Shown here one piece after another: positions 2,656 through 32,997 of a DNA stretch of 64,000 nt. The translations under genes and the position numbers were made by a program. The stretch is from Candidatus Levyibacteriota bacterium (GTDB lineage Bacteria > Patescibacteriota > Microgenomatia > Levybacterales > UBA12049). Below the pieces are notes generated by a model. It was not told the DNA's origin, made no database searches, and worked only from the letters and a program-made list of their open reading frames with translations. Within the stretch, counting starts at the first letter, position 1. Every line of letters starts with the position of its first letter. The DNA lies in NCBI GenBank assembly GCA_029260905.1, contig JAJDCH010000011.1, positions 512 to 64,511 of the forward strand, in the 5' to 3' direction.

Positions 2656-4533
2656 ATGGAAGATCAACTACTCAAGGATTTAAACAAAGAACAACAAGCC
2701 TCAGTACTCCAAACAGATGGCCCGATGATTATTTTGGCTGGAGCAGGATCAGGAAAAACAAGAGTTCTTACATATAAGGTACTCTACCTTATGCTTGAAA
2801 AACAAATTGCGCCTGAGTCAATTTTGATGATTACATTTACCAATAAGGCTGCCAATGAAATGAAAGAGCGCATGGAAAAAATGCTCTCCAGTAAAGTAAA
2901 ATCCAAGAACCAAGAACCAAGAACCAGTGGTAAGCCTTGGATCGCCACTTTTCATTCAATGTGTGCCAAAATCTTAAGAGTTGAGGGTAAGCATCTTGGT
3001 TTTTCTGAAAAATTTGTTATTTATGATTCACAGGATCAGCTAGATGCGATAAAAGAGGCAATGACCAGGCTTGATATTTCTATAAAGGATTTCAAACCCA
3101 GATCTGTCCTATCAACAATATCTGGTGCCAAAAACGAACTAATAACAGCCAATGAGTATCTTAATTTTGCTAAAGGCCATTTTCAAGAGACTGTCTCTAG
3201 AATATATCCTGTTTACCAATCACTGCTCAAAGAGAATGATGCGCTTGATTTTGACGATCTTATTCTCATGACAATCAAACTTTTTCAGGACAATGAGCAG
3301 GTGTTGAAAAAATATCAGTTAAGACTTGAATATATTCTTGTTGATGAATATCAAGACACCAACAGAGCTCAATATATCCTGACCAAACTTCTTACCAAAA
3401 GATGGAAAAATATTTGTGTAGTTGGTGACTTCTCACAAAGCATTTATTCCTGGCGTGGTGCAGACTATCGAAACTTGATGCGTTTTAAAGAAGACTTTCC
3501 AGGAACCAGAACTTTCTCCCTTTCTCAAAACTACAGATCTACTCAAAAAATACTTGATGGAGCAAGTGCTGTTATATCCAAAAACACCTCTCATCCAGTA
3601 CTTAAACTCTGGACAGAAAATCCAGCAGGTTCTGAAATAGATATCTATGAAGCAGAGAATGAGCAAGACGAGGCGGATTTTATTATAAAACATCTTATTG
3701 ATAAGCATGTTGCAAATCTAAATGACATCGCAGTTCTTTATAGAACCAACGCGCAATCCCGTGTGATAGAAGAAGCATTTCTTCATCATGGCATACCATA
3801 CGTATTAATTGGAGGAACAAGATTCTATGAAAGAAAAGAAATAAAAGACGTTCTTTCATACATAAGAGTTGTTGAGAATCCAAAAGATTCTGTCTCATAC
3901 AAAAGAGTTGAAAAATTAGGCAAAAAAAGATTGCAGAAATTCAAAAACTACCAAGAAGAAACCCAAGATCCAAAATCCAAGATCCAAGATCTCAACACCA
4001 TAGATATACTCGATGGAATTATTAAAGCAACCAACTATCTTGATCTGTATGATGAAAAAATTGAAGAAGACAGGGCAAGACTTGAAAATATCAAAGAGCT
4101 TAGATCTGTTGCCATTGCACATCCTGATCTCACAGATTTTCTTGAAAACGTGGCACTGGTTGAGCAGGAATACAATTCAAAAAAAACCACAGAAGGAGAA
4201 ACCAAAAATGCAATTACACTCATGACGCTTCACGGAGCAAAGGGACTTGAGTTCCCAACAGTCTTCATGATCGGAATGGAAGAAGGACTTTTTCCCCACA
4301 GCAGATCACTCATGGATAAAACACAACTAGAAGAAGAGCGACGCCTTTGCTATGTTGGAATGACGCGTGCTAAAGAAAAACTTCTACTGACCTATGCGAG
4401 AAGAAGACTTTTTTTTGGACAAAGAGCAACCAACATGGTATCCCGTTTTGTCATGGAATTACCAGAACATCTAATAAATCAAGGTTTGGAATCAATTGAT
4501 TTAAAAGAAAAAGACCCTGCTGATCTTTTCTAA
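2656..4533 (+). CDS. uvrD: ATP-dependent DNA helicase, UvrD/PcrA family
   Basis: Walker A (AGAGSGKTRVLTYK), DEYQDTN motif II, and a conserved C-terminal 2B/2A region (LTLHGAKGLEFPTVFMIG). Contains two in-frame heptamer-repeat insertions. Confidence 0.85.
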   Translation: MEDQLLKDLNKEQQASVLQTDGPMIILAGAGSGKTRVLTYKVLYLMLEKQIAPESILMITFTNKAANEMKERMEKMLSSKVKSKNQEPRTSGKPWIATFHSMCAKILRVEGKHLGFSEKFVIYDSQDQLDAIKEAMTRLDISIKDFKPRSVLSTISGAKNELITANEYLNFAKGHFQETVSRIYPVYQSLLKENDALDFDDLILMTIKLFQDNEQVLKKYQLRLEYILVDEYQDTNRAQYILTKLLTKRWKNICVVGDFSQSIYSWRGADYRNLMRFKEDFPGTRTFSLSQNYRSTQKILDGASAVISKNTSHPVLKLWTENPAGSEIDIYEAENEQDEADFIIKHLIDKHVANLNDIAVLYRTNAQSRVIEEAFLHHGIPYVLIGGTRFYERKEIKDVLSYIRVVENPKDSVSYKRVEKLGKKRLQKFKNYQEETQDPKSKIQDLNTIDILDGIIKATNYLDLYDEKIEEDRARLENIKELRSVAIAHPDLTDFLENVALVEQEYNSKKTTEGETKNAITLMTLHGAKGLEFPTVFMIGMEEGLFPHSRSLMDKTQLEEERRLCYVGMTRAKEKLLLTYARRRLFFGQRATNMVSRFVMELPEHLINQGLESIDLKEKDPADLF

Positions 4534-8544: not shown

Positions 8545-10686
8545 TTATATCATGATTTTTCCATTTTTTACTTTTGGTTCAATTTCAGCACCTGGTTTTA
8601 TCGATCCTTCAATTATTCTTGTTGCTATCTCGTCAACTAACCTTTCATCAATTGCCCTCTTCAGGGGTCTTGCGCCAAAAACAGGATCATATCCAACTTC
8701 GGCAAAATAAATACTCAGATCATCTGTTATCTTCATATTTATACCATTCTCACTCATCCTCTCTTTTACCCGCTCCAATTGTAATTCTGCAATTTTGATA
8801 AGATCTTTGGGAGAAAGATTGTTATATGTAACAATTGAATCAAGCCTATTTAAAAATTCAGGTTTAAAATGCTGATGAAGAATTTCATTTATTTTTTTAT
8901 CAATACTGTCTTTATCGCTTTCCTCTTTCAAAATATCTCCGCCAAGATTACTAGTCATAATTATAATTGTATTTCTAAAATCAACTTTTACACCTTTACT
9001 ATCAGTCAGCATCCCTTCATCAAATATCTGGAGAAAAAGATTAAACACTTGAGGATGAGCCTTCTCTATTTCATCAAAAAGAATAACGGAATATGGCTTT
9101 CTGCGAACTGCCTCTGTTAACTGCCCACCTTCTTCATAGCCAACATATCCGGGAGGCGCACCAATCATTCGCGCAACGCTATGATTTTCCATATATTCAC
9201 TCATATCAATTCTTGTCAGGGCGTGCTCATTATTAAAAAGTATTCTTGCTAAGGTTTTTGCAGTTTCTGTTTTACCAACACCTGTTGGACCAAGAAAAAG
9301 GAAAGAACCAATCGGCTTGTCTCTTGCAGAAAGACCTGATCTTGATCTGCGAACAGCTCTTGCCACCAAATTAACAGCCCTGTCTTGACCTATTACTTGT
9401 TTTTTTAGTTCCTCATCAAGCTTTAAAAGCCTATCTGATTCAGTAGAAAGCACTTTGCTTACAGGTATCCCAGTCCAGCGCGCAACCACTTTTGCTATAT
9501 CTTCAGCATCAACCTCTTCCCTTAAAACCTGTTCGTCTGTTGGAATTTTGCTCCACTCATTCATTAACTCATTCAATCTCTTCTCAATCTCAGGAATTTT
9601 TCCATATTTTATTTCAGCCGCTTTTTGAAGATCAACATTACGCTCTGCTTCCTGAAGCTCTATCCGATATGTATCAATTTTTGCTCTCATGTCTTGCACT
9701 TTTTGAATTATTTCTTTTTGTTTTTTCCATCTCTTTTCAAGCGTACTTGCTTCTGCTTTTAATTTTTCAAGTTCTTTTTCTTGTGTCTCTTTTCTACTCT
9801 TAGAGATTTCACTTTTTTCTTTTTTCAATGCAGCAAGTTCTATCTCAATTTGTGTTATTTTTCTTTTCAATAGATCAAGTTCAGCCGGCATACTTTCTGT
9901 TTCAATTTTTATTGCAGCTGCTGCTTCATCTATAAGATCAATTGCTTTATCTGGTAAAAATCTTTGAGGAATATATTGCGCCGAAAGCTTGGCCGCTTGA
10001 ATAATTGCATTATCAGTTATACGAATCCCGTGGTGCAACTCATACTTTTCTTTAATTCCTCTCAAAATAGAAATAGTATCCTCAATTGTTGGCTCATCTA
10101 TAAGAACAGGCTGAAAACGTCTTGCAAGTGCTGGATCTTTTTCAATATACTTCCTATACTCACCAACTGTTGTCGCGCCTATCATTTTAAGCGCTCCACG
10201 AGCAAGTGCAGGCTTTAGCATATTTGCTGCATCAACAGATCCCTCGCTTGATCCTCCACCAACAAGTGTATGAAGCTCATCAATAAACATAACATATTTT
10301 CCATCTGCATCCTCTACAGCCTTTACAAGACTCTTTAGTCTTTCTTCAAATTCTCCCCTAAATTTTGCACCAGCCAAAAGCTGTGCAAAATCCAAAACAA
10401 GCACTTCCTTTTCTTTAAGAGGTGTTGGCACATTTTTTTCAAAAATTTTTTGAGCAAGTCCTTCAACTATTGCAGTCTTACCCACCCCTGGATCACCGAT
10501 AAGAACTGGATTATTCTTTGTGCGTCTTGAAAGTATCTCCATTATTCGCCTTATCTCAACCTCACGACCAATAACAGGATCAATTTTGCCACTATTTGCA
10601 AGATCAGTTAGATTAATTGTGAATTTTTTAAGCGCTTCATCAGGTGACACAGGCCTTAAAAAATCTATTGCTTGATTGTTGTTCAT
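8545..10686 (-). CDS. clpB: ClpB-type AAA+ disaggregase lacking the N-terminal domain
   Basis: Two AAA+ modules (GDPGVGKT and GPTGVGKT) separated by a long coiled-coil M-domain. It is 713 aa and has no Clp_N repeat. Confidence 0.85.
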
Positions 10687-18077: not shown

Positions 18078-18722
18078 CTATTTACTCTCTCCCTGCGCCT
18101 CTTCTATTAATTTCTTGAGGTTTGTCGGGATTGGATTCTTCTTTAGAAGCTTTGCCATGTAAGTTGTATTGTGGACAAGAAATCGCAAAGTTTTATTGGT
18201 ATATAAATGCTTTTCTCCACCTGCGTCTATATAGGAGGGTCCAGGTCCTGCAGGTCCAACCCAATAAGTATCGACATTGGGTGGAACTACACATCCCAAG
18301 TGAGTTAAGTTAAATAAAGTATTGGCTGCAACATCATGCGCGCCGTCTTCATTACCTGTTACGATACATCCTGCAACTTTGTTATATAATGGAAATTGCC
18401 CAGTCTTTTTGTTTCCTTCTGCATATGTTCCATCCAGTCGTTCAATAACAAGTTGTGCAACGGATGAACGGACACCAAACCAAATTGGAGCAGCGATAAC
18501 AATGATATCGCAAGCTTTAATTTTCACCAAAATCTTTGGCCACTCATCACCTTCGCCTTCATAAGAAGATACACCAAATGGAATATTGAAATCAACAACA
18601 CGGATAACATCTGACTCAACATCCAATTTTTTGTACTCCTTCACAACCTTTTTGATCAGCGCTTCGGTATTTGAAACTTTTGGAGATTTTTTGAGAGTAC
18701 AATTTAAAATTACTGCTTTCAT
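18078..18722 (-). CDS. Flavodoxin-like NAD(P)H-dependent FMN oxidoreductase
   Basis: Flavodoxin-like fold (IIVIAAPIWFGVRSS). It is the last gene of the aro-trpS transcription unit. Confidence 0.6.
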   Translation of the reverse strand: MKAVILNCTLKKSPKVSNTEALIKKVVKEYKKLDVESDVIRVVDFNIPFGVSSYEGEGDEWPKILVKIKACDIIVIAAPIWFGVRSSVAQLVIERLDGTYAEGNKKTGQFPLYNKVAGCIVTGNEDGAHDVAANTLFNLTHLGCVVPPNVDTYWVGPAGPGPSYIDAGGEKHLYTNKTLRFLVHNTTYMAKLLKKNPIPTNLKKLIEEAQGESK

Positions 18723-19705
18723 AACAATCCCATTTTCTTTTTTACTTCTTCAACTGTTTCTCTGGCAATTTCAGATGCTTTTTTGTTTCCATCTTTTATG
18801 ATCTGATCAACCACATCAGGATTCTCTTCAAAATATTTTCTTTTTTCTTGAAATGGCTTTAACTCAGCAAAAATAGCATCAGCCAAAACCTGCTTCATGT
18901 CAGAATATCTGATTCTTTTTTCCCGATAATCTATAACAAATTTTACGAAAATTTCTTTGTCGACAAAAAGCTTAAGTAATGTAAATAAATTTCCAACCCC
19001 ACCTGTTTCTGGAATATTGCCACCTTCCAGGCCGCTATCAGTTGGCGCTTTGGCAAGCTTTGATTTTATAGTCGCCAAATCATCTATCAAGTTTATGAAA
19101 CTCCCCTCAATGCTTTTACTCATCTTCCCTTCACCAAGAAGTGATGGGACGTATTGACCTGGTGTTTTAAACCTTTTGGGTTCTGGAAAATAAGTACCAA
19201 AATCCTGATTCATACGACGCGCGATTTCTCTTACTACCTCAATATGTGGCTCTTGATCAAGACCAACAGGTATACTGTCTGCTTTATAAACCAAAATATC
19301 TGCTGCCATCAGAACTGGATAATTAAGTAACGCTATTGTGACATTTTCTGGATGTTGTTTTACCTTTTCTTTAAAAGTTGGAAGATGCTGCATCTTGGCA
19401 ACTGTCATAACGGTTGAAAAAAGATAAGCAAGTTCTATGTGATACGGATTTGAGCTTTGCTGAAAAAGAATACTTTTCCCATGATCAAGTCCTGCTGCTA
19501 GATAATCAATTATAATCTCGCGTCTATTTTTACGCAGCTCCTCCACATCATACGGCGTTGTCAAAGTATGAAGATCGGCAACCATATAAAGAGTTTCATA
19601 ATCAGAGTTATCCTGCAACTCAAGCATGCCTTTTATTGCACCGAGATAATTCCCCAGATGGAGTCTGCCATTTGCTCTTATTCCTGAAAGTACTCTTTTT
19701 TTCAT
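18719..19705 (-). CDS. trpS: Tryptophan--tRNA ligase
   Basis: HLGNYLG (HIGH-type) and KMSKS motifs; 328 aa. Confidence 0.9.
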   Translation of the reverse strand: MKKRVLSGIRANGRLHLGNYLGAIKGMLELQDNSDYETLYMVADLHTLTTPYDVEELRKNRREIIIDYLAAGLDHGKSILFQQSSNPYHIELAYLFSTVMTVAKMQHLPTFKEKVKQHPENVTIALLNYPVLMAADILVYKADSIPVGLDQEPHIEVVREIARRMNQDFGTYFPEPKRFKTPGQYVPSLLGEGKMSKSIEGSFINLIDDLATIKSKLAKAPTDSGLEGGNIPETGGVGNLFTLLKLFVDKEIFVKFVIDYREKRIRYSDMKQVLADAIFAELKPFQEKRKYFEENPDVVDQIIKDGNKKASEIARETVEEVKKKMGLL

Positions 19706-19706
19706 A

Positions 19707-20789
19707 TTATAAATTCTGCGCTTTATGTCGCAAATAATGATCCATTATGACTAGTGCCGACATCGCATCAACTATTGGTACAGCTCTTGGCAAAACGCAT
19801 GGGTCATGACGTCCCGCAGCGCTAAGCGTTACCTCTTTTTTATTTTTGCTTACTGTTTGCTGTTCCTTTTTTATCGTTGAAACAGGCTTAAAGGCAACTC
19901 TAAAATGAATCGTCTCGCCATTTGAAATACCTCCTGTTACTCCCCCTGAATTATTTGAACTGGTTCTTATTTTTCCATCTTCAATCTTAAAAGGATCATT
20001 GTGCTGACTACCTCTTAATTTTGTCCCTTCAAATCCTGATCCTATCTCAAATCCCTTAACAGCATTAATGCTAAGCATAGCTTTCCCAAGATCTGCACTG
20101 AGCTTATCAAAAACAGGCTCACCAAGACCAACTGGCACATTTTTGATAACTCCTCTTATAGCCCCTCCTATTGAGTCTCCATCTTCTTTTACATCCTCGA
20201 TAAGCGAGATCATCTCCTCTGCTTTTTCAGGATCAGGACAACGGATGATATTTGCTTCAACATCCTCCATTGAGACATTTTCAAAATCAATATCTGTTCT
20301 GATATTACCAACACTTTCAACATAGCTAATTATTTCAACGCCTAATTTCTTATACAAATATTTTTTTGCAATCACACTTGCAGCAACGCGCGCTAAGGTC
20401 TCTCTTGCAGATGCGCGACCCGATCCTCTCCAATCACGAAAACCATATTTTGCCTCATATGTATAATCTGCATGAGATGGACGATACACATCCTTTAGCT
20501 CTATATAATCATCTGATTCAAATTCCTGATTGAAAGCAATAACAAGAATTGGTGTTCCAGTTGTCTTTCCTTCAAAAACACCTGAAAGGATTTTAACAGT
20601 ATCTGATTCTTTTCTTGGTGTAGTAATCTTACTTTGTCCTGGTCTTCTTCTGTCCTGCTCTTTCTGGATTTCTTCCTCTGTTATCTCAATTCCAGGAGGG
20701 CAACCATCAACAACCACTCCCACGCCACCGCCATGCGATTCTCCAAAAGTTGTTATTCTAAATAAATGTCCAAATGTATTTCCAGCCAT
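19707..20789 (-). CDS. aroC: Chorismate synthase
   Basis: [18 protein letters not shown] together with the FMN-binding segment. Confidence 0.9.
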
Positions 20790-20806
20790 ATTTTATAAAT
20801 TAAAAA

Positions 20807-21487
20807 TCAGGAATTATGAATTATGGAAAACACCTTTTCCATATCATCTTTTGTAAGTTGTCCTTCTGCCGATTGCTCGTCCAAGGTCTTCGGCACAAAA
20901 ACCATTTCATTTCCATATAGTGTTCCAAAAATTCTTGTCAGCAAACTTTTTTCACCCATTCCCAAAATAATATGCTTAATATTTTTATCCCGCAACTCCA
21001 AACCCAAATCCAAAAGCCTAATTGCGTCTTTTTCTGTTTTACAAAATGTTGATATTTTTACAATGTTTGGACTGTGCTGATCCATTGTATCAATTATTTC
21101 ACTCAATTTCTTGCTTTCTGGAGTTTCCTCATAATTATGATACGAAATAATTTTTTTAATTTTTAAATTATTATCTTTTATGTGCTCCAACTCCTCTTTT
21201 TGTGCTATATCAATATCAAGCATCGCATCGGTGTCTTCCAGAAATGAAACAATCTCAAGCCTTTTCTCAAGATTTATCTGTATTGGCTCCAGATTTTTCC
21301 TCCTGAAAAGAATTATCAATTTTTCTCTCAATTCCTCACTCAATTGACTAATAAAATTAGTATCAATCTTATCAACATAATCAATCCAGACTTCAAAAAA
21401 ATCATACTCGTGTTTGTGTTTTGAAATCATTTCCAACACATCATCTTTTGAATTTTTAATAATTGGCAAACAATAATTTATTTTCAT
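20807..21487 (-). CDS. aroD: 3-dehydroquinate dehydratase, type I
   Basis: ISYHNYEETP and ILGMGEKSLLTRIFG are AroD-like blocks. Confidence 0.7.
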   Translation of the reverse strand: MKINYCLPIIKNSKDDVLEMISKHKHEYDFFEVWIDYVDKIDTNFISQLSEELREKLIILFRRKNLEPIQINLEKRLEIVSFLEDTDAMLDIDIAQKEELEHIKDNNLKIKKIISYHNYEETPESKKLSEIIDTMDQHSPNIVKISTFCKTEKDAIRLLDLGLELRDKNIKHIILGMGEKSLLTRIFGTLYGNEMVFVPKTLDEQSAEGQLTKDDMEKVFSIIHNS

Positions 21488-21490
21488 ATT

Positions 21491-22318
21491 TTATTCTTCT
21501 CTTAATGCTTCAAGGAGTGCGTCTCGCATAATTTTTTCTGGTGCTTCAACTCCCGTATACATCCTGAACTGTTCAATTCCCTGGTGAAGAAGCATCTCAG
21601 AACCATACACGATTTTTGCGCCCTTTTTATTTGCATTTTTCAACAGTTTTGTTTCGTGTGGATTGTAGACTGCATCTAAAACGATATGTTTTTTCTCAAT
21701 CAAATTTTCAGGAAGAAAGAGTTTATCCACTTCAGGACTCATTCCAACAGATGTCATATTCAAAATAATATCTATTTCTTTTATTTTTTCTACATCCGTT
21801 AAAGGAAAGTATTCACAGTCAAAATCCTCAGCAAGTTTTTTTGCTTTTTCTACTGTCCTATTAAAAATGCTTACCCTTGCTCCTTTTTTGATAAGTCCGT
21901 AAACAGCAGCCCTTGCAGCACCACCTGCTCCCAAGACAGCCGCTTTTTTCCCGTTAATTTCTGTCACATTTTTAAGAGAATTTACAACGCCAAGCCAGTC
22001 AGTATTGTACCCTGTTAATCTTCCATTATCGTTCACAACCGTATTTACTGCTCCAATTTCTTTTGCGGTATCATCTATATTATCCAAAAAATTCATTATT
22101 TCCTGTTTGAAAGGAATTATCACACTCACCCCTCTTATCTGCATCGCTTTTACTCCCTTCACAAAATCTTCCAAGTCCTCTATCTTCAGACTTGCTGAGA
22201 GGTAAACAAAGTCAAGTCCCAGTTCCTGATATCCTGCATTATGCATAATAGGTGACATTGATTTCCTGCCTAACCCTCCAATATTCATACATATTTTTGT
22301 GCTTGATGTTATTTTCAT
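21491..22318 (-). CDS. aroE: Shikimate dehydrogenase
   Basis: KSMSPIMHNAGY substrate motif and the GAGGAARA NADP-binding loop. Confidence 0.85.
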   Translation of the reverse strand: MKITSSTKICMNIGGLGRKSMSPIMHNAGYQELGLDFVYLSASLKIEDLEDFVKGVKAMQIRGVSVIIPFKQEIMNFLDNIDDTAKEIGAVNTVVNDNGRLTGYNTDWLGVVNSLKNVTEINGKKAAVLGAGGAARAAVYGLIKKGARVSIFNRTVEKAKKLAEDFDCEYFPLTDVEKIKEIDIILNMTSVGMSPEVDKLFLPENLIEKKHIVLDAVYNPHETKLLKNANKKGAKIVYGSEMLLHQGIEQFRMYTGVEAPEKIMRDALLEALREE

Positions 22319-22809
22319 TATTTTATTTTTACTACTATATCCTCTACTACTTCATCAACTTTTTTATCATCGGTTGAGATTTCAAAATCTGCATATTTAT
22401 TATACAAAGCTTTACGCAAATCATACAGCGCTTTTGCTTTTTCCTTATTTTCAAAAAGAGGACGCGGAATCTTTGGATTGATTCTTTTTAGAACTGTTTC
22501 AAAACTTGCAGTAAGCGCAACTATCAAAGAGTTCTTTTTCAGATTTTTAACATTCTCATCTCTCATAACCACACCACCACCAGTCGAGATTACACCCTTG
22601 GTTGTGTCTCTCAGATCAGCACAAACTTTAGATTCATATTTCCTAAAAAGCTCTTCACCACCAATTTCAAAAATTTCTTCAATACTCATACCTGCCTTCT
22701 TAACAATCAAATCATCCATCTCGATAACATGCGTATCAAGTCTTTTGACAAGAACTTGTGCTACTGTACTTTTACCAGTTCCCATAAATCCTATCAAAAC
22801 TATTTTCAT
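22318..22809 (-). CDS. aroK: Shikimate kinase
   Basis: P-loop GFMGTGKSTV; 163 aa. Confidence 0.85.
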   Translation of the reverse strand: MKIVLIGFMGTGKSTVAQVLVKRLDTHVIEMDDLIVKKAGMSIEEIFEIGGEELFRKYESKVCADLRDTTKGVISTGGGVVMRDENVKNLKKNSLIVALTASFETVLKRINPKIPRPLFENKEKAKALYDLRKALYNKYADFEISTDDKKVDEVVEDIVVKIK

Positions 22810-24089
22810 ATTTCTTCCTCCTCTATTTTAATTCCTATTTCTTTTAATTTTTTCCAAAAATCAGGAAATGATTTGCTAACAACTTCTGGATTATTTATAG
22901 TTATTCCATCAATTTTTGTACCCGCAACAGCAAAACTCATCGCCATCCGATGATCTCCATATGTATCAATTGCTGCTGATTTTGGGACACCGCCATGGAT
23001 AATAATTGAATCTTCAGTTGTATTTGTTTTAATTCCCATTTTTGCCAATTCTTCCTCAACTGCTTTTACCCTTTCTGTTTCTTTATGTCTTAAAGTCTTA
23101 ATTCCTGTTATTTTTGTATCACCTTTTGCAAACGCAGCAAGCACAGAAAGGGTTTGAGCCTGATCGGGACAATTGTTCATATTTATATTAATTGGTGATA
23201 TTCCCTTGCCTACAATTGTTATCTCTTGTTCTCCAAAATTAATCTCCTGCCCCATCTTCTCAAGAATTTTTAAAAAATTTATATCCGCTTGGACTGATTT
23301 GGGATTAACATTTTTAACTGTAATTTTTGATTTGGTAAGCGCTGCAATTGCAAAAAAATACGACGCGCTTGAAAGATCTGTTTCAACTAAATATGAATTA
23401 GCATCATATTCATTACCCAAAATCAAATATTCTCTATAATTATTATTTAAAACTTCAATTCCAAATTGATTCAAAATATCAATTGTCATATCAACATATG
23501 ACTTTGAAACCTGCTCATTTTTTACATTAATTTTTTCAATCCCTGCAATAGGCGCAATCATAAGAAGCGAACTTAAATACTGGCTACTCAAACTTCCGTT
23601 TATGCTTATTTCTTTTTTACCCAGATCTGCTGATACAACACTTACAGGCGGAAATCCTTTTTCTCCAAGATAATCTATCTTTGCGCCAAGTTCTCTCAAT
23701 GCATCCACCTCATCACCAATCGGTCTCTTATTTAGCCCTTCAAGTCCATAAATCTTTTTAACGCCTGGCACTATTATTGAAAGTGCTAGAATAAATTTCA
23801 GAGTAATTCCAGAAAGACTTGCATTTAAATTATAACTACCTTCCTTGACATCTCTTATATCACCAACAACTTCAACAGAATCTTCTTCTTCAACAATTTT
23901 TATTCCCAGAGATTTCAAGCAAAAAATCATTGCTTTTGTGTCATCACTGATCAGCGGGTTTAAAATCACAACTGGCTTTTTTGTAAGTGTTGCCAAAAGC
24001 AAAGCTCTTATTGTATAGCTTTTTGATGAAGGTATATTAATTGATGAATCAATTGATTCTCTGAGCGGATGTATTGTAATTTTTTTCAT
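22806..24089 (-). CDS. aroA: 3-phosphoshikimate 1-carboxyvinyltransferase (EPSP synthase)
   Basis: N-terminal PSSKSYTIRALLLA and the overall EPSP synthase fold; 427 aa. Confidence 0.9.
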   Translation of the reverse strand: MKKITIHPLRESIDSSINIPSSKSYTIRALLLATLTKKPVVILNPLISDDTKAMIFCLKSLGIKIVEEEDSVEVVGDIRDVKEGSYNLNASLSGITLKFILALSIIVPGVKKIYGLEGLNKRPIGDEVDALRELGAKIDYLGEKGFPPVSVVSADLGKKEISINGSLSSQYLSSLLMIAPIAGIEKINVKNEQVSKSYVDMTIDILNQFGIEVLNNNYREYLILGNEYDANSYLVETDLSSASYFFAIAALTKSKITVKNVNPKSVQADINFLKILEKMGQEINFGEQEITIVGKGISPININMNNCPDQAQTLSVLAAFAKGDTKITGIKTLRHKETERVKAVEEELAKMGIKTNTTEDSIIIHGGVPKSAAIDTYGDHRMAMSFAVAGTKIDGITINNPEVVSKSFPDFWKKLKEIGIKIEEEEI

Positions 24090-25177
24090 TTTGCCACATA
24101 GGATAAAGTTTTTTTTAAATTTTCGTCCGAAACATTTCTATCATAGACTCCCACCCCAATATTTTTTAACAATGTAAAATTAATTTTTGTAAATTCATTT
24201 TTTTTATCAGACTTCATTTTTTCAATTAAATTTTCGATCTCAAAACCAGATACACCTGTAGGAAGTCCTGCGTCAATAATCGCTGTTTCAATCTTTTCAA
24301 ACTCCTCCTGAGTTAGCAAGCTCTCGAGCACAGACAACTTGGCCTCAGCCACCATACCTATACTTATCGCTTCACCATGAAGTAAAGGATTTAAGGTCTC
24401 AAGACTCAGTGCCTCAAACGCATGACCTATCGTATGACCAAAATTCAAAAGCTTTCTTAACCCCATTTCATTTTCATCAGAAACAATAATCTCTTTTTTT
24501 ATCTCTATTGATCTATAAATCAGATCAACCAATTCTTCTTTGTCAAAACCTTTTAAAGATTTTGCAGTCACTTTTTCAAAATAATCCTTATCTTTAATAA
24601 GACCGTGTTTTATAATCTCTGAAAAACCTGACAAAAACTCTCTCTCTGGAAGACTGTCCAAAAAATTTACATCTATAATCACACTCATTGGTTGAATAAA
24701 TGTTCCAATTAAATTCTTAATATTCCCAAAATCAATTCCTGTTTTACCACCCACACTTGCATCAACCATTGACAAAAGAGTAGTTGGAATATTTAAGAAA
24801 TCAATTCCCCGCATATATGTACCTGCGGCAAATCCTCCCATATCGGTAATTACTCCCCCTCCCAGATTTATGACAAGTGATTTACGGTCAAATCTGTTCT
24901 CCAGAAGCGTCTTCCAGATTATTTCAATTGACTTAATGTTTTTTGATTTTTCACCTGATGCAAGAATTATGGAAACAGAATCTTTTGGCAAAACCAATAA
25001 TAATCTATCAAGAAAAAGCGACTTTATGTTCTCATCGGTTATTACTGCAATCTTTGAATATTGTGAAAGATCAACAACTGCTGAGAGCTTCTCAATAAGT
25101 CCCTTATCTACAAAAATCCCGTACTGACTTTGTCTGTTCAAAATGGTTATTGTTATTTGTTTCATATTATTCACCAA
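24086..25177 (-). CDS. aroB: 3-dehydroquinate synthase
   Basis: LGGGVITDMGGFAA and HTIGHA metal-binding motifs. Confidence 0.9.
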   Translation of the reverse strand: MVNNMKQITITILNRQSQYGIFVDKGLIEKLSAVVDLSQYSKIAVITDENIKSLFLDRLLLVLPKDSVSIILASGEKSKNIKSIEIIWKTLLENRFDRKSLVINLGGGVITDMGGFAAGTYMRGIDFLNIPTTLLSMVDASVGGKTGIDFGNIKNLIGTFIQPMSVIIDVNFLDSLPEREFLSGFSEIIKHGLIKDKDYFEKVTAKSLKGFDKEELVDLIYRSIEIKKEIIVSDENEMGLRKLLNFGHTIGHAFEALSLETLNPLLHGEAISIGMVAEAKLSVLESLLTQEEFEKIETAIIDAGLPTGVSGFEIENLIEKMKSDKKNEFTKINFTLLKNIGVGVYDRNVSDENLKKTLSYVAK

Positions 25178-26096
25178 GCTTTAAGAAATAACTGTTTATT
25201 TTCGAAACACTTAAAAGCTTTTTCCTAGATAGTTTTCTCTTGTAATTTTTTATCTCAGAACCTGTTGGAATTGCAGAAACATTTCCAACCCGCCTACATT
25301 GCATTGCAGCAATAGAGTTGGCAAATCCTGCAGAATCTCTCAAGCTCCACTTCTTTATTATACCGTATGTGAATGCGCCTCTGTATATATCTCCTGCTCC
25401 AGTTGTATCAACTACCGATACCATTCTTGCCGGTATAAGATCGGTGTTTTCTCCATCATAAATAATGCTTCCAAGCTCACCCAAGGTAATGACAAAAGCC
25501 TTGCCACAGATTTTATACAAACAATTGAGACAAGAGCTAAAATCACGCTTGTTACAAAAGTTAGCAATTGAGTCAATTGGAATAATTGGATAGTCAGCAT
25601 GCCTCATCATATCTTTTACAAAGCTAGTTACCTCGGTTGAGGGATCTATTATTATCTTCGCTGATTGCTTTTTGTTTTTTACTATTTCATAAAAAGCCTT
25701 TCTCTCATGTCTGTCGATAATAATAAAATCAAATTGCTCAATAAATTTCTTTTCCATCTTTTCAATTGCTCTATGCTTTACTGGTCCTCTTATTTTTTTT
25801 CTTTGCCCTGAAATCGGATCAATTAAAATTGTGTTTACTTTAGTGTTATTTTGAAGATTATTAATCGTTTTTATTTTTTCCTCCTTCAAGGTATTAATTA
25901 TCATCTCTCCCTCAGAATCATTTCCAACACTAGTTAGAAATGTACAATCTATCCCAAGTCGTGAAAGTAGAATCATTGATGTCAAAACAGGACCACCGAT
26001 ATTTCTTTTTTCTGTCTGCTCTTTTGCGCCTACAAAAAAGATATTATCTATAACTGATTCTCCAATTCCAAGTATTTTCATATTTGTTTTTGACAT
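25167..26096 (-). CDS. PfkB-family carbohydrate/ribokinase-like kinase, first gene of the aro operon
   Basis: DTTGAGDIYRGAF ATP-binding motif. Confidence 0.7.
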   Translation of the reverse strand: MSKTNMKILGIGESVIDNIFFVGAKEQTEKRNIGGPVLTSMILLSRLGIDCTFLTSVGNDSEGEMIINTLKEEKIKTINNLQNNTKVNTILIDPISGQRKKIRGPVKHRAIEKMEKKFIEQFDFIIIDRHERKAFYEIVKNKKQSAKIIIDPSTEVTSFVKDMMRHADYPIIPIDSIANFCNKRDFSSCLNCLYKICGKAFVITLGELGSIIYDGENTDLIPARMVSVVDTTGAGDIYRGAFTYGIIKKWSLRDSAGFANSIAAMQCRRVGNVSAIPTGSEIKNYKRKLSRKKLLSVSKINSYFLKLGE

Positions 26097-26124
26097 AAAA
26101 AAACCTCCCTATTTATGGGAGGTT
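26097..26124 (-). terminator. Intrinsic terminator/attenuator hairpin directly 5' of the PfkB-aro operon ATG
   Basis: On the minus strand, CCTCCC-ataaata-GGGAGG (extendable to 8 bp) is followed by UUUUUUU and then ATG. Confidence 0.55.
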
Positions 26125-26160
26125 ATACTTTATAGCGCTTTAACACGCCAAACTACCTCC

Positions 26161-26211
26161 CTAGGAAGTAAAGTAAAACCAAATCTTGACTAGTTGCTGA
26201 ATATTTTTCAT
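26161..26211 (-). promoter_or_regulatory. Candidate 16-aa aromatic leader peptide (MKNIQQLVKIWFYFTS) of the aro operon
   Basis: ATG lies 12 nt downstream of the -10 (transcript may be near-leaderless). Codons run W-F-Y-F immediately before a UAG stop that abuts GGGAGGU, which is complementary to the 5' arm of the terminator. Confidence 0.45.
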
Positions 26212-26222
26212 ATGACTTTCAG

Positions 26223-26251
26223 ATTATAAACCTACCTGCCTCAAAAATCAA
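26223..26251 (-). promoter_or_regulatory. Sigma70-like promoter for the aro-trpS operon, internal to the trp-aro supercluster
   Basis: On the minus strand, TTGATT-17nt-TATAAT sits 9 nt downstream of the trpA stop. Confidence 0.5.
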
Positions 26252-26259
26252 GACTACGC

Positions 26260-27048
26260 TTAGAAAACCATTTCTTTCAAAAATTTCGAAACATTTTTTT
26301 CAATCTCATTCTCTTTTGAATCTCTAATAACATCAATTATTGCTGATCCAATTACAGCAATTTCGGCTTTACCTAAAAGTGAGCCAATTTGTTCTTTGCT
26401 TGAAATCCCAAAGCCGACTGCAATCGGAATTGAGAAAAACTTTTTTATTCTTTCCAGATTTTTACTCAATTGAGAATCTAGATTCTCTTTTACACCAGTG
26501 GTGCCACGACGTGACGTGACGTAAACAAAACCCTCTGCCTTTTCTGCATTAAGCTTCACCCGATGATCAGGTGAGAAAGATGAAATAACCTGAATATTGT
26601 AAAGCTTGTACTTTTGACAATATTCAAGCAGATGTTCATCTCCTTCTTCATCAACTGGCATATCAGGAACAATTATCCCAGATGCACCAGCCTCTTTTGC
26701 ATCTTTGCAAAATTTTTCAACTCCGTATTTAAATACAATATTGTAATAACACATAAAAAGAAGTGGGATTTTAATTTCCTTAGCAAGCTTTTTCATAACA
26801 ATGAAACTATCTTTTACTTTTATGCCTCGTGCTAAAGAATCCTCACATGCTTTCATTATCGTTGGTCCATCAGCCAGCGGATCAGAAAAAGGAATCTGCA
26901 ACTCCACCATGTCAGCTCCTGCTTCTTCCAAAATTTTAACTATCTCAATTGTTTTCTCAACCGATGGAAAACCAACAACAGTATGCGCCATTATCCCAAT
27001 CCTGCTATCATTTTTGATTTGTGCCAATTTTTGATCAATCAAATTCAT
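26260..27048 (-). CDS. trpA: Tryptophan synthase alpha chain
   Basis: TrpA TIM-barrel blocks (ELQIPFSDPLADGP and GFGIS). Confidence 0.9.
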   Translation of the reverse strand: MNLIDQKLAQIKNDSRIGIMAHTVVGFPSVEKTIEIVKILEEAGADMVELQIPFSDPLADGPTIMKACEDSLARGIKVKDSFIVMKKLAKEIKIPLLFMCYYNIVFKYGVEKFCKDAKEAGASGIIVPDMPVDEEGDEHLLEYCQKYKLYNIQVISSFSPDHRVKLNAEKAEGFVYVTSRRGTTGVKENLDSQLSKNLERIKKFFSIPIAVGFGISSKEQIGSLLGKAEIAVIGSAIIDVIRDSKENEIEKNVSKFLKEMVF

Positions 27049-32699: not shown

Positions 32700-32966
32700 T
32701 TATTTTATATAGTCAAATCTGCCTTTTTGAATTTCCTTTGATCCTCTTGTTACTGTCGCAACTCCAACCTTCAACCTTTTTGCAATCTTCTGATGCGGGA
32801 CACCACGCTTTAACATCTTTATGATTTGCAATCTATTTGGAATTTCATCTATCTCTTTCGAGCTTAAGATTCCAAATAAGAAATCTCGAAGCTCATCTTT
32901 ATCTTTCATCATAGAGATAGTATCTATCAACTCATTAAGATGTTTTCTATTATCTTTCATATCCAT
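32700..32966 (-). CDS. TrpR-like DNA-binding protein, YerC/YecD family
   Basis: 88 aa. IAKRLKVGVATVTRGSKEIQKG matches the Trp_repressor/YerC HTH. It lies 9 nt upstream of trpE. Confidence 0.6.
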   Translation of the reverse strand: MDMKDNRKHLNELIDTISMMKDKDELRDFLFGILSSKEIDEIPNRLQIIKMLKRGVPHQKIAKRLKVGVATVTRGSKEIQKGRFDYIK

Positions 32967-32968
32967 TC

Positions 32969-32997
32969 ATTATACTAGTATACTGATATACAGTCAA
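32969..32997 (-). promoter_or_regulatory. Sigma70 consensus promoter with an embedded ACTAGT-centred palindrome (candidate TrpR-type operator) for the trpR-like-trpEGDCFBA transcript
   Basis: On the minus strand, TTGACT-17nt-TATAAT. The perfect palindrome TATACTAGTATA (32971-32982) lies between -35 and -10 and resembles the E. coli trp operator core GTACTAGT. Confidence 0.55.

Follow-up and report, generated by a model that had tools for sequence, protein, structure and literature searches.

The minus strand of a 64,000-nucleotide stretch of DNA from a Candidatus Levyibacteriota bacterium (contig JAJDCH010000011.1; the whole stretch is called the window here) carries a gene for a TrpR-family protein followed by trpE, G, D, C, F, B and A, with trpA ending at 26260, and then a shikimate operon whose genes are tightly packed or overlapping, with aroD of type I and trpS in the eighth place. 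This context of trp genes upstream and aro-trpS genes downstream had been proposed in a preliminary description of the stretch and was confirmed by the listing of open reading frames (ORFs) and by Pfam. Between the two operons lies an element of about 115 nt, whose features are collected in Table 1. Judging from sequence comparison and stall modelling, it is very probably a ribosome-mediated (leader-peptide) transcription attenuator that would sense the supply of aromatic aminoacyl-tRNA, and by its sequence it is a member of a family of aromatic leader-peptide attenuators, large and so far uncurated, in the candidate phyla radiation (CPR, Patescibacteria). The evidence comprises aromatic codons clustered in a short ORF, an intrinsic terminator before the first gene, an exclusive antiterminator that uses the 5' arm of that terminator, and the stall geometry in a footprint model.

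Table 1. Features of the leader element and of the operon that follows it (window positions).
Feature	Position	Strand	Details	Basis
Promoter, sigma-70-type, TTGATT-17-TATAAT	26223..26251	-	-35 at 26251-26246, -10 at 26228-26223	
Leader ORF MKNIQQLVKIWFYFTS	26161..26211	-	16 codons + TAG (26163-26161); ATG at 26211	
Regulatory codons TGG TTT TAC TTT	26170..26181	-	Trp-Phe-Tyr-Phe	Codon reading
Segment 1, UACUUCC	26164..26170	-	Last base of the final Phe codon + Thr and Ser codons	Folds
Segment 2, GGGAGGUA	26154..26161	-	Partner of segment 1 or segment 3	Folds, pair counts, stall modelling
Central hairpin UGGCGU-guuaaa-GCGCUA	26133..26150	-	Within the antiterminator loop domain	Folds
Segment 3, AACCUCCC	26117..26124	-	5' arm of terminator; antiterminator partner of segment 2	Terminator scan, folds
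Segment 4, GGGAGGUU + U7	26097..26109	-	3' arm and tail of intrinsic terminator	Terminator scan, folds
Operon: pfkB-family kinase, aroB, aroA, aroK, aroE, aroD, aroC, trpS, NADPH-dependent FMN reductase	18078..26096	-		ORF listing, Pfam

The leader ORF reads ATG AAA AAT ATT CAG CAA CTA GTC AAG ATT TGG TTT TAC TTT ACT TCC TAG, and the GGGAGGT that follows shares its first G with the end of the TAG stop codon. The promoter after trpA, the 16-codon ORF with its Trp-Phe-Tyr-Phe run and the UAG abutting GGGAGGU had all been recognised in the preliminary description and are present where it placed them. Pairing of segments 1 and 2 gives the anti-antiterminator hairpin P1, in which the ACU and UCC codons and the preceding U face GGAGGUA and the UAG stop (26163-26161) makes up the 3-nt loop. 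The terminator, AACCTCCC-ataaata-GGGAGGTT followed by T7 (26124-26097), has an 8-bp stem and a hairpin energy of -12.5 kcal/mol, and the antiterminator formed by segments 2 and 3 extends over 26161-26117. Segment 1 is similar in sequence to segment 3, and segment 2 to segment 4. This four-segment arrangement is the layout of a classical attenuator; the preliminary description had the antiterminator and the terminator right but counted three segments, overlooking segment 1 (ACUUCC, the last two codons). Its hairpin with U7 directly before the operon ATG is likewise present, and the ATG at 26096 adjoins the U-run of the terminator, but the kinase probably starts at the second ATG, 26081 (MKILGIGES, as in all orthologues), and not necessarily at 26096.

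The 141-nt leader is more stably folded than its shuffles (z = -2.7), and the terminator hairpin ranks first in the terminator scan of the region. The promoter match carries no statistical weight by itself, since promoter-like sites are not enriched in the region (57 found, 63 expected from shuffles). The end of the -10 box and the leader ATG are 11 nt apart in the window, and with the transcription start placed by promoter spacing the 5' untranslated region (UTR) of the leader would be about 4-5 nt long, without a Shine-Dalgarno (SD) sequence. Whether the element is real was decided by comparison of sequences across relatives, which confirmed it.

Orthologues of the operon's first gene, a PfkB-family kinase, were gathered by a protein-based scan with one genome per species, which gave 26 loci, and metagenome leaders by a DNA-pattern scan with TGGTTTTAYTTTACTYCC, in which about 15 real leaders stood among the 120 matches listed, the rest being mostly chance. 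The family total is at least 41 leaders from CPR/Patescibacteria genomes and metagenomes, and family counts below refer to these 41. The leader unit (ORF, hairpins and promoter) precedes the kinase gene in 24 of the 26 orthologous loci, within 120-170 nt upstream, which answers in the affirmative the question, raised in the preliminary description, whether the short aromatic ORF and the hairpin are conserved in relatives. The unit there consists of an ATG-initiated ORF of 16-35 codons, ACUUCCC-loop-GGGAGGUU, a central hairpin that is found in all family members with variable sequence, and ACCUCCC-loop-GGGAGGU with a U-run; P1 is extended or bulged in some members. Every leader (41/41) has a run of 4-8 consecutive aromatic codons, with blocks such as YFWFYF, YYWFYF, FYFYFF and FFYFYYF, among others, and the consensus (Y/F)(Y/F)WFYF. 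The kinase homologues come from metagenome-assembled genomes titled Candidatus Levyibacteriota, Pacebacteria, Woesebacteria, Saccharimonadia and Gracilibacteria; the closest match to the window kinase has 57% identity, and most loci show the operon order pfkB-(DAHP synthase)-aroB-aroA-aroK-aroE-aroD, where DAHP is 3-deoxy-D-arabino-heptulosonate 7-phosphate. A covariance model built from 34 leaders (R1) matches the window exactly once, at 26097-26187, with 58 bits and an E-value of about 1e-7.

The genes around the leader differ from locus to locus. Downstream of it stand a DAHP synthase gene (L110, L124, L140, L144, L160, L198), chorismate mutase (L094), a prephenate dehydrogenase/dehydratase fusion (L140) or pheS-pheT (L113, L134, L164), and pheS-pheT are also found at the end of L140, L094 and L160. 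In L113, L134, L164, L140, L094 and L160 the leader lies between rplT and pheS-pheT, sometimes with other aromatic genes inserted before pheS. Upstream, rplT is the immediate neighbour of at least 25 of the 41 leaders, with the -35 box inside the last rplT codons; elsewhere the neighbour varies, being aroC in L013, where aro genes precede the leader and pfkB, and trpA in L004 (Pacebacteria), as in the window. From these gene orders, the leader unit is a piece that has evidently moved around within aromatic gene clusters. An exception among the 26 kinase loci, L001, carries two tandem leaders one gene further upstream, before the DAHP synthase gene. They lie at 3703-3810 and 3842-3954 of that locus, each with its own terminator, ahead of a DAHP synthase-pfkB-aroB operon, and encode the peptides MKISTNNFFFYDPKDGGGCC (Phe-rich) and MNNLITNNFYFYFYPL, the second with its stop codon in the P1 loop like that of the window. 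In three metagenome contigs an ORF of 71-119 aa without a Pfam match follows the leader.

These neighbourhoods bear on the simplest other account of the locus, in which the hairpin is a plain intrinsic terminator of the trp operon and the small ORF and promoter-like site are there by chance. Such an account can point to the lack of any other terminator between trpA (end 26260) and the hairpin, and to promoter-like sites being no commoner than in shuffles. However, the promoter-ORF-four-segment unit accompanies the downstream gene whatever lies upstream of it (rplT in at least 25 of 41, trpA, aroC and others), the frame and the aromatic block are kept in 41/41 leaders, and the 3' end of the terminator abuts the next gene, leaving that gene without a downstream promoter of its own. 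Termination of the trp operon is, besides, a role compatible with an attenuator and no alternative to it. A plain terminator with chance companions is thus considered extremely unlikely.

The pattern of conservation within the ORF points to its translation. In 41/41 leaders the aromatic block lies in frame with the closest ATG, at spacings of 15, 18, 21, 24, 27, 30, 39 or 54 nt, that is, in whole-codon steps. Inside the block TTT alternates synonymously with TTC and TAT with TAC, the residues Phe, Tyr and Trp replace one another, and codons for other residues are rare; no conservation is seen in the N-terminal part. Such conservation of frame and at the amino-acid level argues that the leader ORF is translated. 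With regard to initiation, 32 of the 35 leaders scored have a promoter close to consensus (9.5 or more of 12 positions matching, mostly TTGACA-17-TAnnnT) that ends 6-13 nt before the ATG; the -10 box ends 6-14 nt before the ATG in 34 of 35 (with peaks at 6-7 and 11-12 nt), and an SD-like motif is absent from 34 of 35, so that the leaders of the family are apparently leaderless or nearly so. A 4-base SD core stands upstream of only 10 of the 58 long ORFs in the window, which, together with four long ORFs whose strong promoter ends exactly 6 nt before the ATG, suggests that leaderless or SD-independent initiation is frequent in this genome.

Sensing without translation has to be weighed at this point, since trp, aro and aminoacyl-tRNA synthetase genes are under T-box, riboswitch or TRAP control in Firmicutes. 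No T-box match was obtained at the Rfam gathering threshold or at E up to 10, and at about 115 nt the element is too short for one; no run of three or more (G/U)AG repeats occurs in 26097-26251, where TRAP binding would call for 9-11 triplets spaced 2-3 nt apart. At gathering thresholds Rfam finds one tRNA only in the whole window, and a permissive scan of the locus returns only a sub-threshold match to Phe_leader. Conservation of the frame argues for translation, and the sole near Rfam match is itself a leader-peptide family. The chance that an RNA of the T-box, riboswitch or TRAP type operates here is regarded as negligible.

Base pairing was counted on a covariance-model-based alignment of 38 leaders (A5), MAFFT alignments having slipped register in the terminator. 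In the terminating state (1:2 plus 3:4) 87% of cells are paired, with 9 double-sided pairs and 31 double-change cells; none of 500 shuffles reached the observed values, and slid controls were 45-75% paired. Over the 38 sequences the P1 columns are 83.5% paired with compensatory changes present, and the terminator columns are 91.7% paired with double-sided changes in 4 of 6 pairs. For the antiterminator 2:3, 82% of cells are paired (slid controls 58-65%), with 3 double-sided pairs and 17 double-change cells; none of 500 shuffles reached its percentage paired, double-change cells or covariation score, but its count of pairs with double-sided change is not above that of the shuffles. Divergent members alter the four segments jointly, as seen in L022 (CCUCCU/AGGAGG), in L024, L148 and the second leader of L001 (CCGC/GCGG), in L019 from Gracilibacteria (CUCUUC/GAAGAG) and in L012 (CCCCC/GGGGG). 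RNAalifold on the 38-sequence alignment recovers the terminator only, because the P1 loop columns are gappy.

On the strength of these observations a switch of the classical kind can be proposed for the window. Transcription would begin at the internal promoter, only a few nucleotides ahead of the leader AUG, giving an mRNA that is leaderless or nearly so, and a ribosome would translate the 16-codon leader while RNA polymerase advances. With Trp-, Phe- or Tyr-tRNA scarce, the ribosome would stall on UGG-UUU-UAC-UUU, covering segment 1 and leaving segment 2 free; segment 2 would pair with segment 3 once that is made, no terminator would form, and transcription would read through into pfkB-aroBAKEDC-trpS. 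With charged tRNAs plentiful, the ribosome would reach the UAG and cover segment 2, and 1:2 would form after its release, so that segment 3 would be free for segment 4 and transcription would stop at U7. RNA that is not translated, such as read-through from the trp operon, would fold into 1:2 plus 3:4 and terminate; therefore the hairpin would double as a trp-operon terminator. The element after trpA thus probably both terminates trp-operon transcripts and gates the common shikimate pathway together with trpS. Which of Trp, Phe and Tyr matters, like the regulatory outcome, is something that we infer.

The geometry of stalling was modelled by constrained folding of RNA that still lacked segment 4, with a ribosome footprint masking nucleotides as far as 13 nt from the A-site codon's first base. 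Under this footprint model every member of the family forms 2:3 when the last aromatic codon occupies the A site. Whole folds of stalled leaders in the family mostly fall between -17 and -27 kcal/mol, compared with about -12 for the hairpin of the terminator by itself. In the window the antiterminator fold has -17.6 kcal/mol, a small 5' hairpin included, when the A site holds Trp, the first Phe or Tyr; with Thr, Ser or UAG there, segment 2 is covered and only the terminator can form; the free RNA adopts 1:2, the central hairpin and 3:4 at -29.8 kcal/mol. In the energy comparison proposed in the preliminary description, the -17.6 kcal/mol of the first three stall positions, and the -11.8 kcal/mol of a stall at the second Phe, stand against -12.5 for the terminator hairpin. 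Its central idea, that stalling at the aromatic codons would free GGGAGGU for ACCUCCC, is supported by conservation, covariation and this modelling.

Several observations weigh against the attenuator, or at least temper it. The covariation of 2:3 is not independent of that of 1:2 and 3:4, because segments 1 and 3 are alike and so are segments 2 and 4, and the alignment on which pairs were counted had itself been fitted to the terminating structure. The version in the window is the weakest of the family and has only four aromatic codons; its stalled antiterminator folds range from -11.5 to -17.6 kcal/mol against -12.5 for the terminator alone, figures that are not exactly comparable. In 16 of 38 relatives the codon block also pairs strongly with an A-rich segment downstream of it, as in the Rfam Phe_leader consensus; this pairing is absent in the window (z = +0.9) and therefore is not part of the model for this locus. 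The equilibrium fold of the full leader still favours the terminator at some stall positions, so that the model depends on co-transcriptional order. Finally, the leader AUG has no SD sequence, and its translation would need a start that is leaderless or has a very short UTR, as placed by promoter spacing.

Control might also be exerted on translation, alone or in addition to attenuation, if GGGAGG of segment 4 were the SD sequence of the first gene, sequestered in 3:4 and exposed in 2:3. With 7 nt between it and the ATG at 26096, its spacing (GGGAGG-U7-ATG) is ideal, and many relatives have an ATG or GTG right behind the U-run. On the other hand, the conserved kinase start MK(I/V)LGIGE comes 8-250 nt later, the codon that adjoins the U-run frequently is in another frame or soon meets a stop, the SD core precedes only 10 of the 58 long ORFs of the window, and a hairpin with U7 is by its sequence a terminator. 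Translational control is accordingly judged unlikely, if less so than the other alternatives treated here. As an observation in its own right, an ATG or GTG abuts the U-run at SD-like spacing from GGGAGG in the window (26093-26096), L004, L006-L008, L010-L012, L014-L016, L018, L020, L023 and L025, being sometimes in frame with the kinase and sometimes opening a mini-ORF of 2-5 codons; this start codon may couple the antiterminated state to translation.

The window also holds a candidate protein regulator. In E. coli TrpR regulates aro genes, and the TrpR-family repressor encoded at 32700-32966 might bind the ACTAGT within the leader ORF (26189-26194), a hexamer that is also the core of TATACTAGTATA at the promoter of the trpR-like gene itself. 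ACTAGT, however, occurs 9 times in the window against 9.7 expected, its flanks in the leader are not palindromic, the leader N-terminus is unconserved, and L004, the sole other locus with a leader after trpA, lacks it there; the conserved ORF and the four segments would be left unexplained. A TrpR operator was rejected as the main mechanism, ACTAGT being neither enriched nor conserved, and control by a protein regulator is held to be very unlikely.

The leader-peptide attenuator, then, has to be set beside known systems, among which pheM of E. coli is the nearest. In MG1655, CCAGGAGGCU comes after the pheM stop codon, and AGCCUCC-cagu-GGAGGCU with a U-run closes the leader. R1 aligns pheM over its full length with 32 bits (E = 8e-5 in 2 kb, 0.003 in 66 kb). 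With the Rfam model Phe_leader (RF01859, threshold 55 bits) pheM scores 75, the window 28.5 (E = 0.01) and other CPR leaders 31.4-43.7; the window element is thus below the gathering threshold, though among Rfam families it is Phe_leader that matches the CPR leaders best. Both have a short leader with a terminal aromatic run and then Ser/Thr (...WFYFTS in the window), a stop codon just ahead of a GGAGG-containing segment 2, and a terminator CCUCC(C)-loop-GGAGG with a U-run, and the CPR leaders share the position immediately 3' of rplT in at least 25 of 41 cases, some with pheS-pheT next. Unlike pheM, the CPR peptide mixes Trp, Tyr and Phe where that of E. coli is dominated by Phe, the CPR leader is apparently leaderless and without an SD sequence, and the window leader follows trpA and would control the common shikimate pathway and trpS instead of pheST-ihfA.

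The leaders trpL and pheL of E. coli each sense one amino acid, control a terminal branch and are translated from mRNA that contains an SD sequence. The window leader differs in being mixed aromatic, in preceding the common pathway and in lacking an SD sequence; it is alike in its 1:2/2:3/3:4 logic and in the regulatory codons placed just upstream of segment 1, as in trpL and in the pheL leader of pheA (PMC11802643). The same source describes pheA and pheST of E. coli as being under the same kind of leader control and, summarising Neshat et al. 2014, the aroR leader of C. glutamicum, in which Phe-Tyr-Phe attenuates the aroF (DAHP synthase) operon with a reported response to Phe and not to Tyr (PMC11802643). 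Compared by description only, aroR is likewise a mixed aromatic leader before a common-pathway operon, but it belongs to another phylum, has no Trp codon and regulates a different operon. Classical attenuators have further been predicted before trpS and leuS in Streptomyces (PMC1262725). There, too, leader-peptide attenuation is applied to an aminoacyl-tRNA synthetase gene, whereas the Streptomyces synthetase is the direct target of a Trp-rich leader and trpS is here the eighth gene behind a leader with one Trp codon. A mixed aromatic leader is therefore less unusual than the preliminary description had held, given the CPR family, the likeness to pheM/pheST, aroR and the Streptomyces trpS precedents. 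Its further remark that such control is undescribed for genomes of this kind holds as far as full-text searches go: literature on Patescibacteria or the candidate phyla radiation with leader peptide or attenuation yielded nothing relevant. The mechanism is a classical one and not a new kind of system; what appears to be new is its occurrence in the CPR lineage, in a family previously uncurated.

In form, and perhaps also through common ancestry, the CPR aromatic family is akin to the pheM/Phe_leader attenuator. It can be proposed, tentatively and with more doubt than conviction, that the CPR leaders and pheM come from one ancient rplT-linked attenuator predating the split of Patescibacteria and Proteobacteria, which in CPR would have become a master switch of the aromatic regulon (pheST, DAHP synthase, chorismate mutase, prephenate enzymes, pfkB-aro and, here, trpS), with sensing broadened from Phe to Phe/Tyr/Trp and with leaderless translation. 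Convergence with pheM is a plausible alternative, given the constraint that Phe/Tyr codons and terminators place on the sequence. Were common descent true, these would be among the most widely conserved leader-peptide attenuators known, and a rare documented case of cis-regulation in organisms usually thought to be without amino-acid biosynthesis; the likeness to pheM in any event prompts one to ask about the age of leader-peptide attenuators.

The usual picture of CPR/Patescibacteria is one of reduced cells that depend on a host and have little biosynthesis, and to our knowledge almost no gene regulation has been characterised in them. In the window a complete trp operon is accompanied by a shikimate operon apparently under textbook translation-coupled attenuation, and the same predicted switch recurs across several CPR phyla, ahead of most aromatic-pathway genes and of pheST, suggesting that CPR cells meet and respond to aromatic amino-acid limitation. 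R1 offers a sequence marker for aromatic-amino-acid regulons in uncultured genomes, and an attenuator so compact (about 115 nt) and apparently leaderless is amenable to in vitro work.

Some further observations concern the surrounding genes. Across CPR phyla the shikimate operon is headed by the PfkB-family sugar kinase (25167-26096 in the window; L001-L025), a conserved arrangement; some sources label the kinase 'sulfofructose kinase', and its conserved start is MK(I/V)LGIGE. A DAHP synthase gene stands between pfkB and aroB in most related loci and is absent from that place in the window, and a tblastn search of the 64 kb with CPR sequences as queries (E up to 1e-3) gave no hit for DAHP synthase, chorismate mutase, prephenate dehydratase/dehydrogenase or pheST. 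The NADPH-dependent FMN reductase gene (18078-18722, minus strand) overlaps the end of trpS and closes the operon; its product could plausibly supply reduced FMN to chorismate synthase (aroC). Directly upstream of trpE, at 32700-32997 on the minus strand, is encoded the 88-aa TrpR-family protein (Pfam Trp_repressor, E = 1.7e-18), whose promoter, TTGACT-17-TATAAT (11 of 12 matches), overlaps the perfect palindrome TATACTAGTATA (32982-32971), likely an autoregulated operator. Promoters with at least 10 of 12 matches and a -10 box ending exactly 6 nt before the ATG precede the long ORFs at 10686 (minus), 14103, 51631 and 56403 (all plus), and the second ATG of the trpR-like gene (32960) lies 8 nt past its -10 box, so that its mRNA may be leaderless too.

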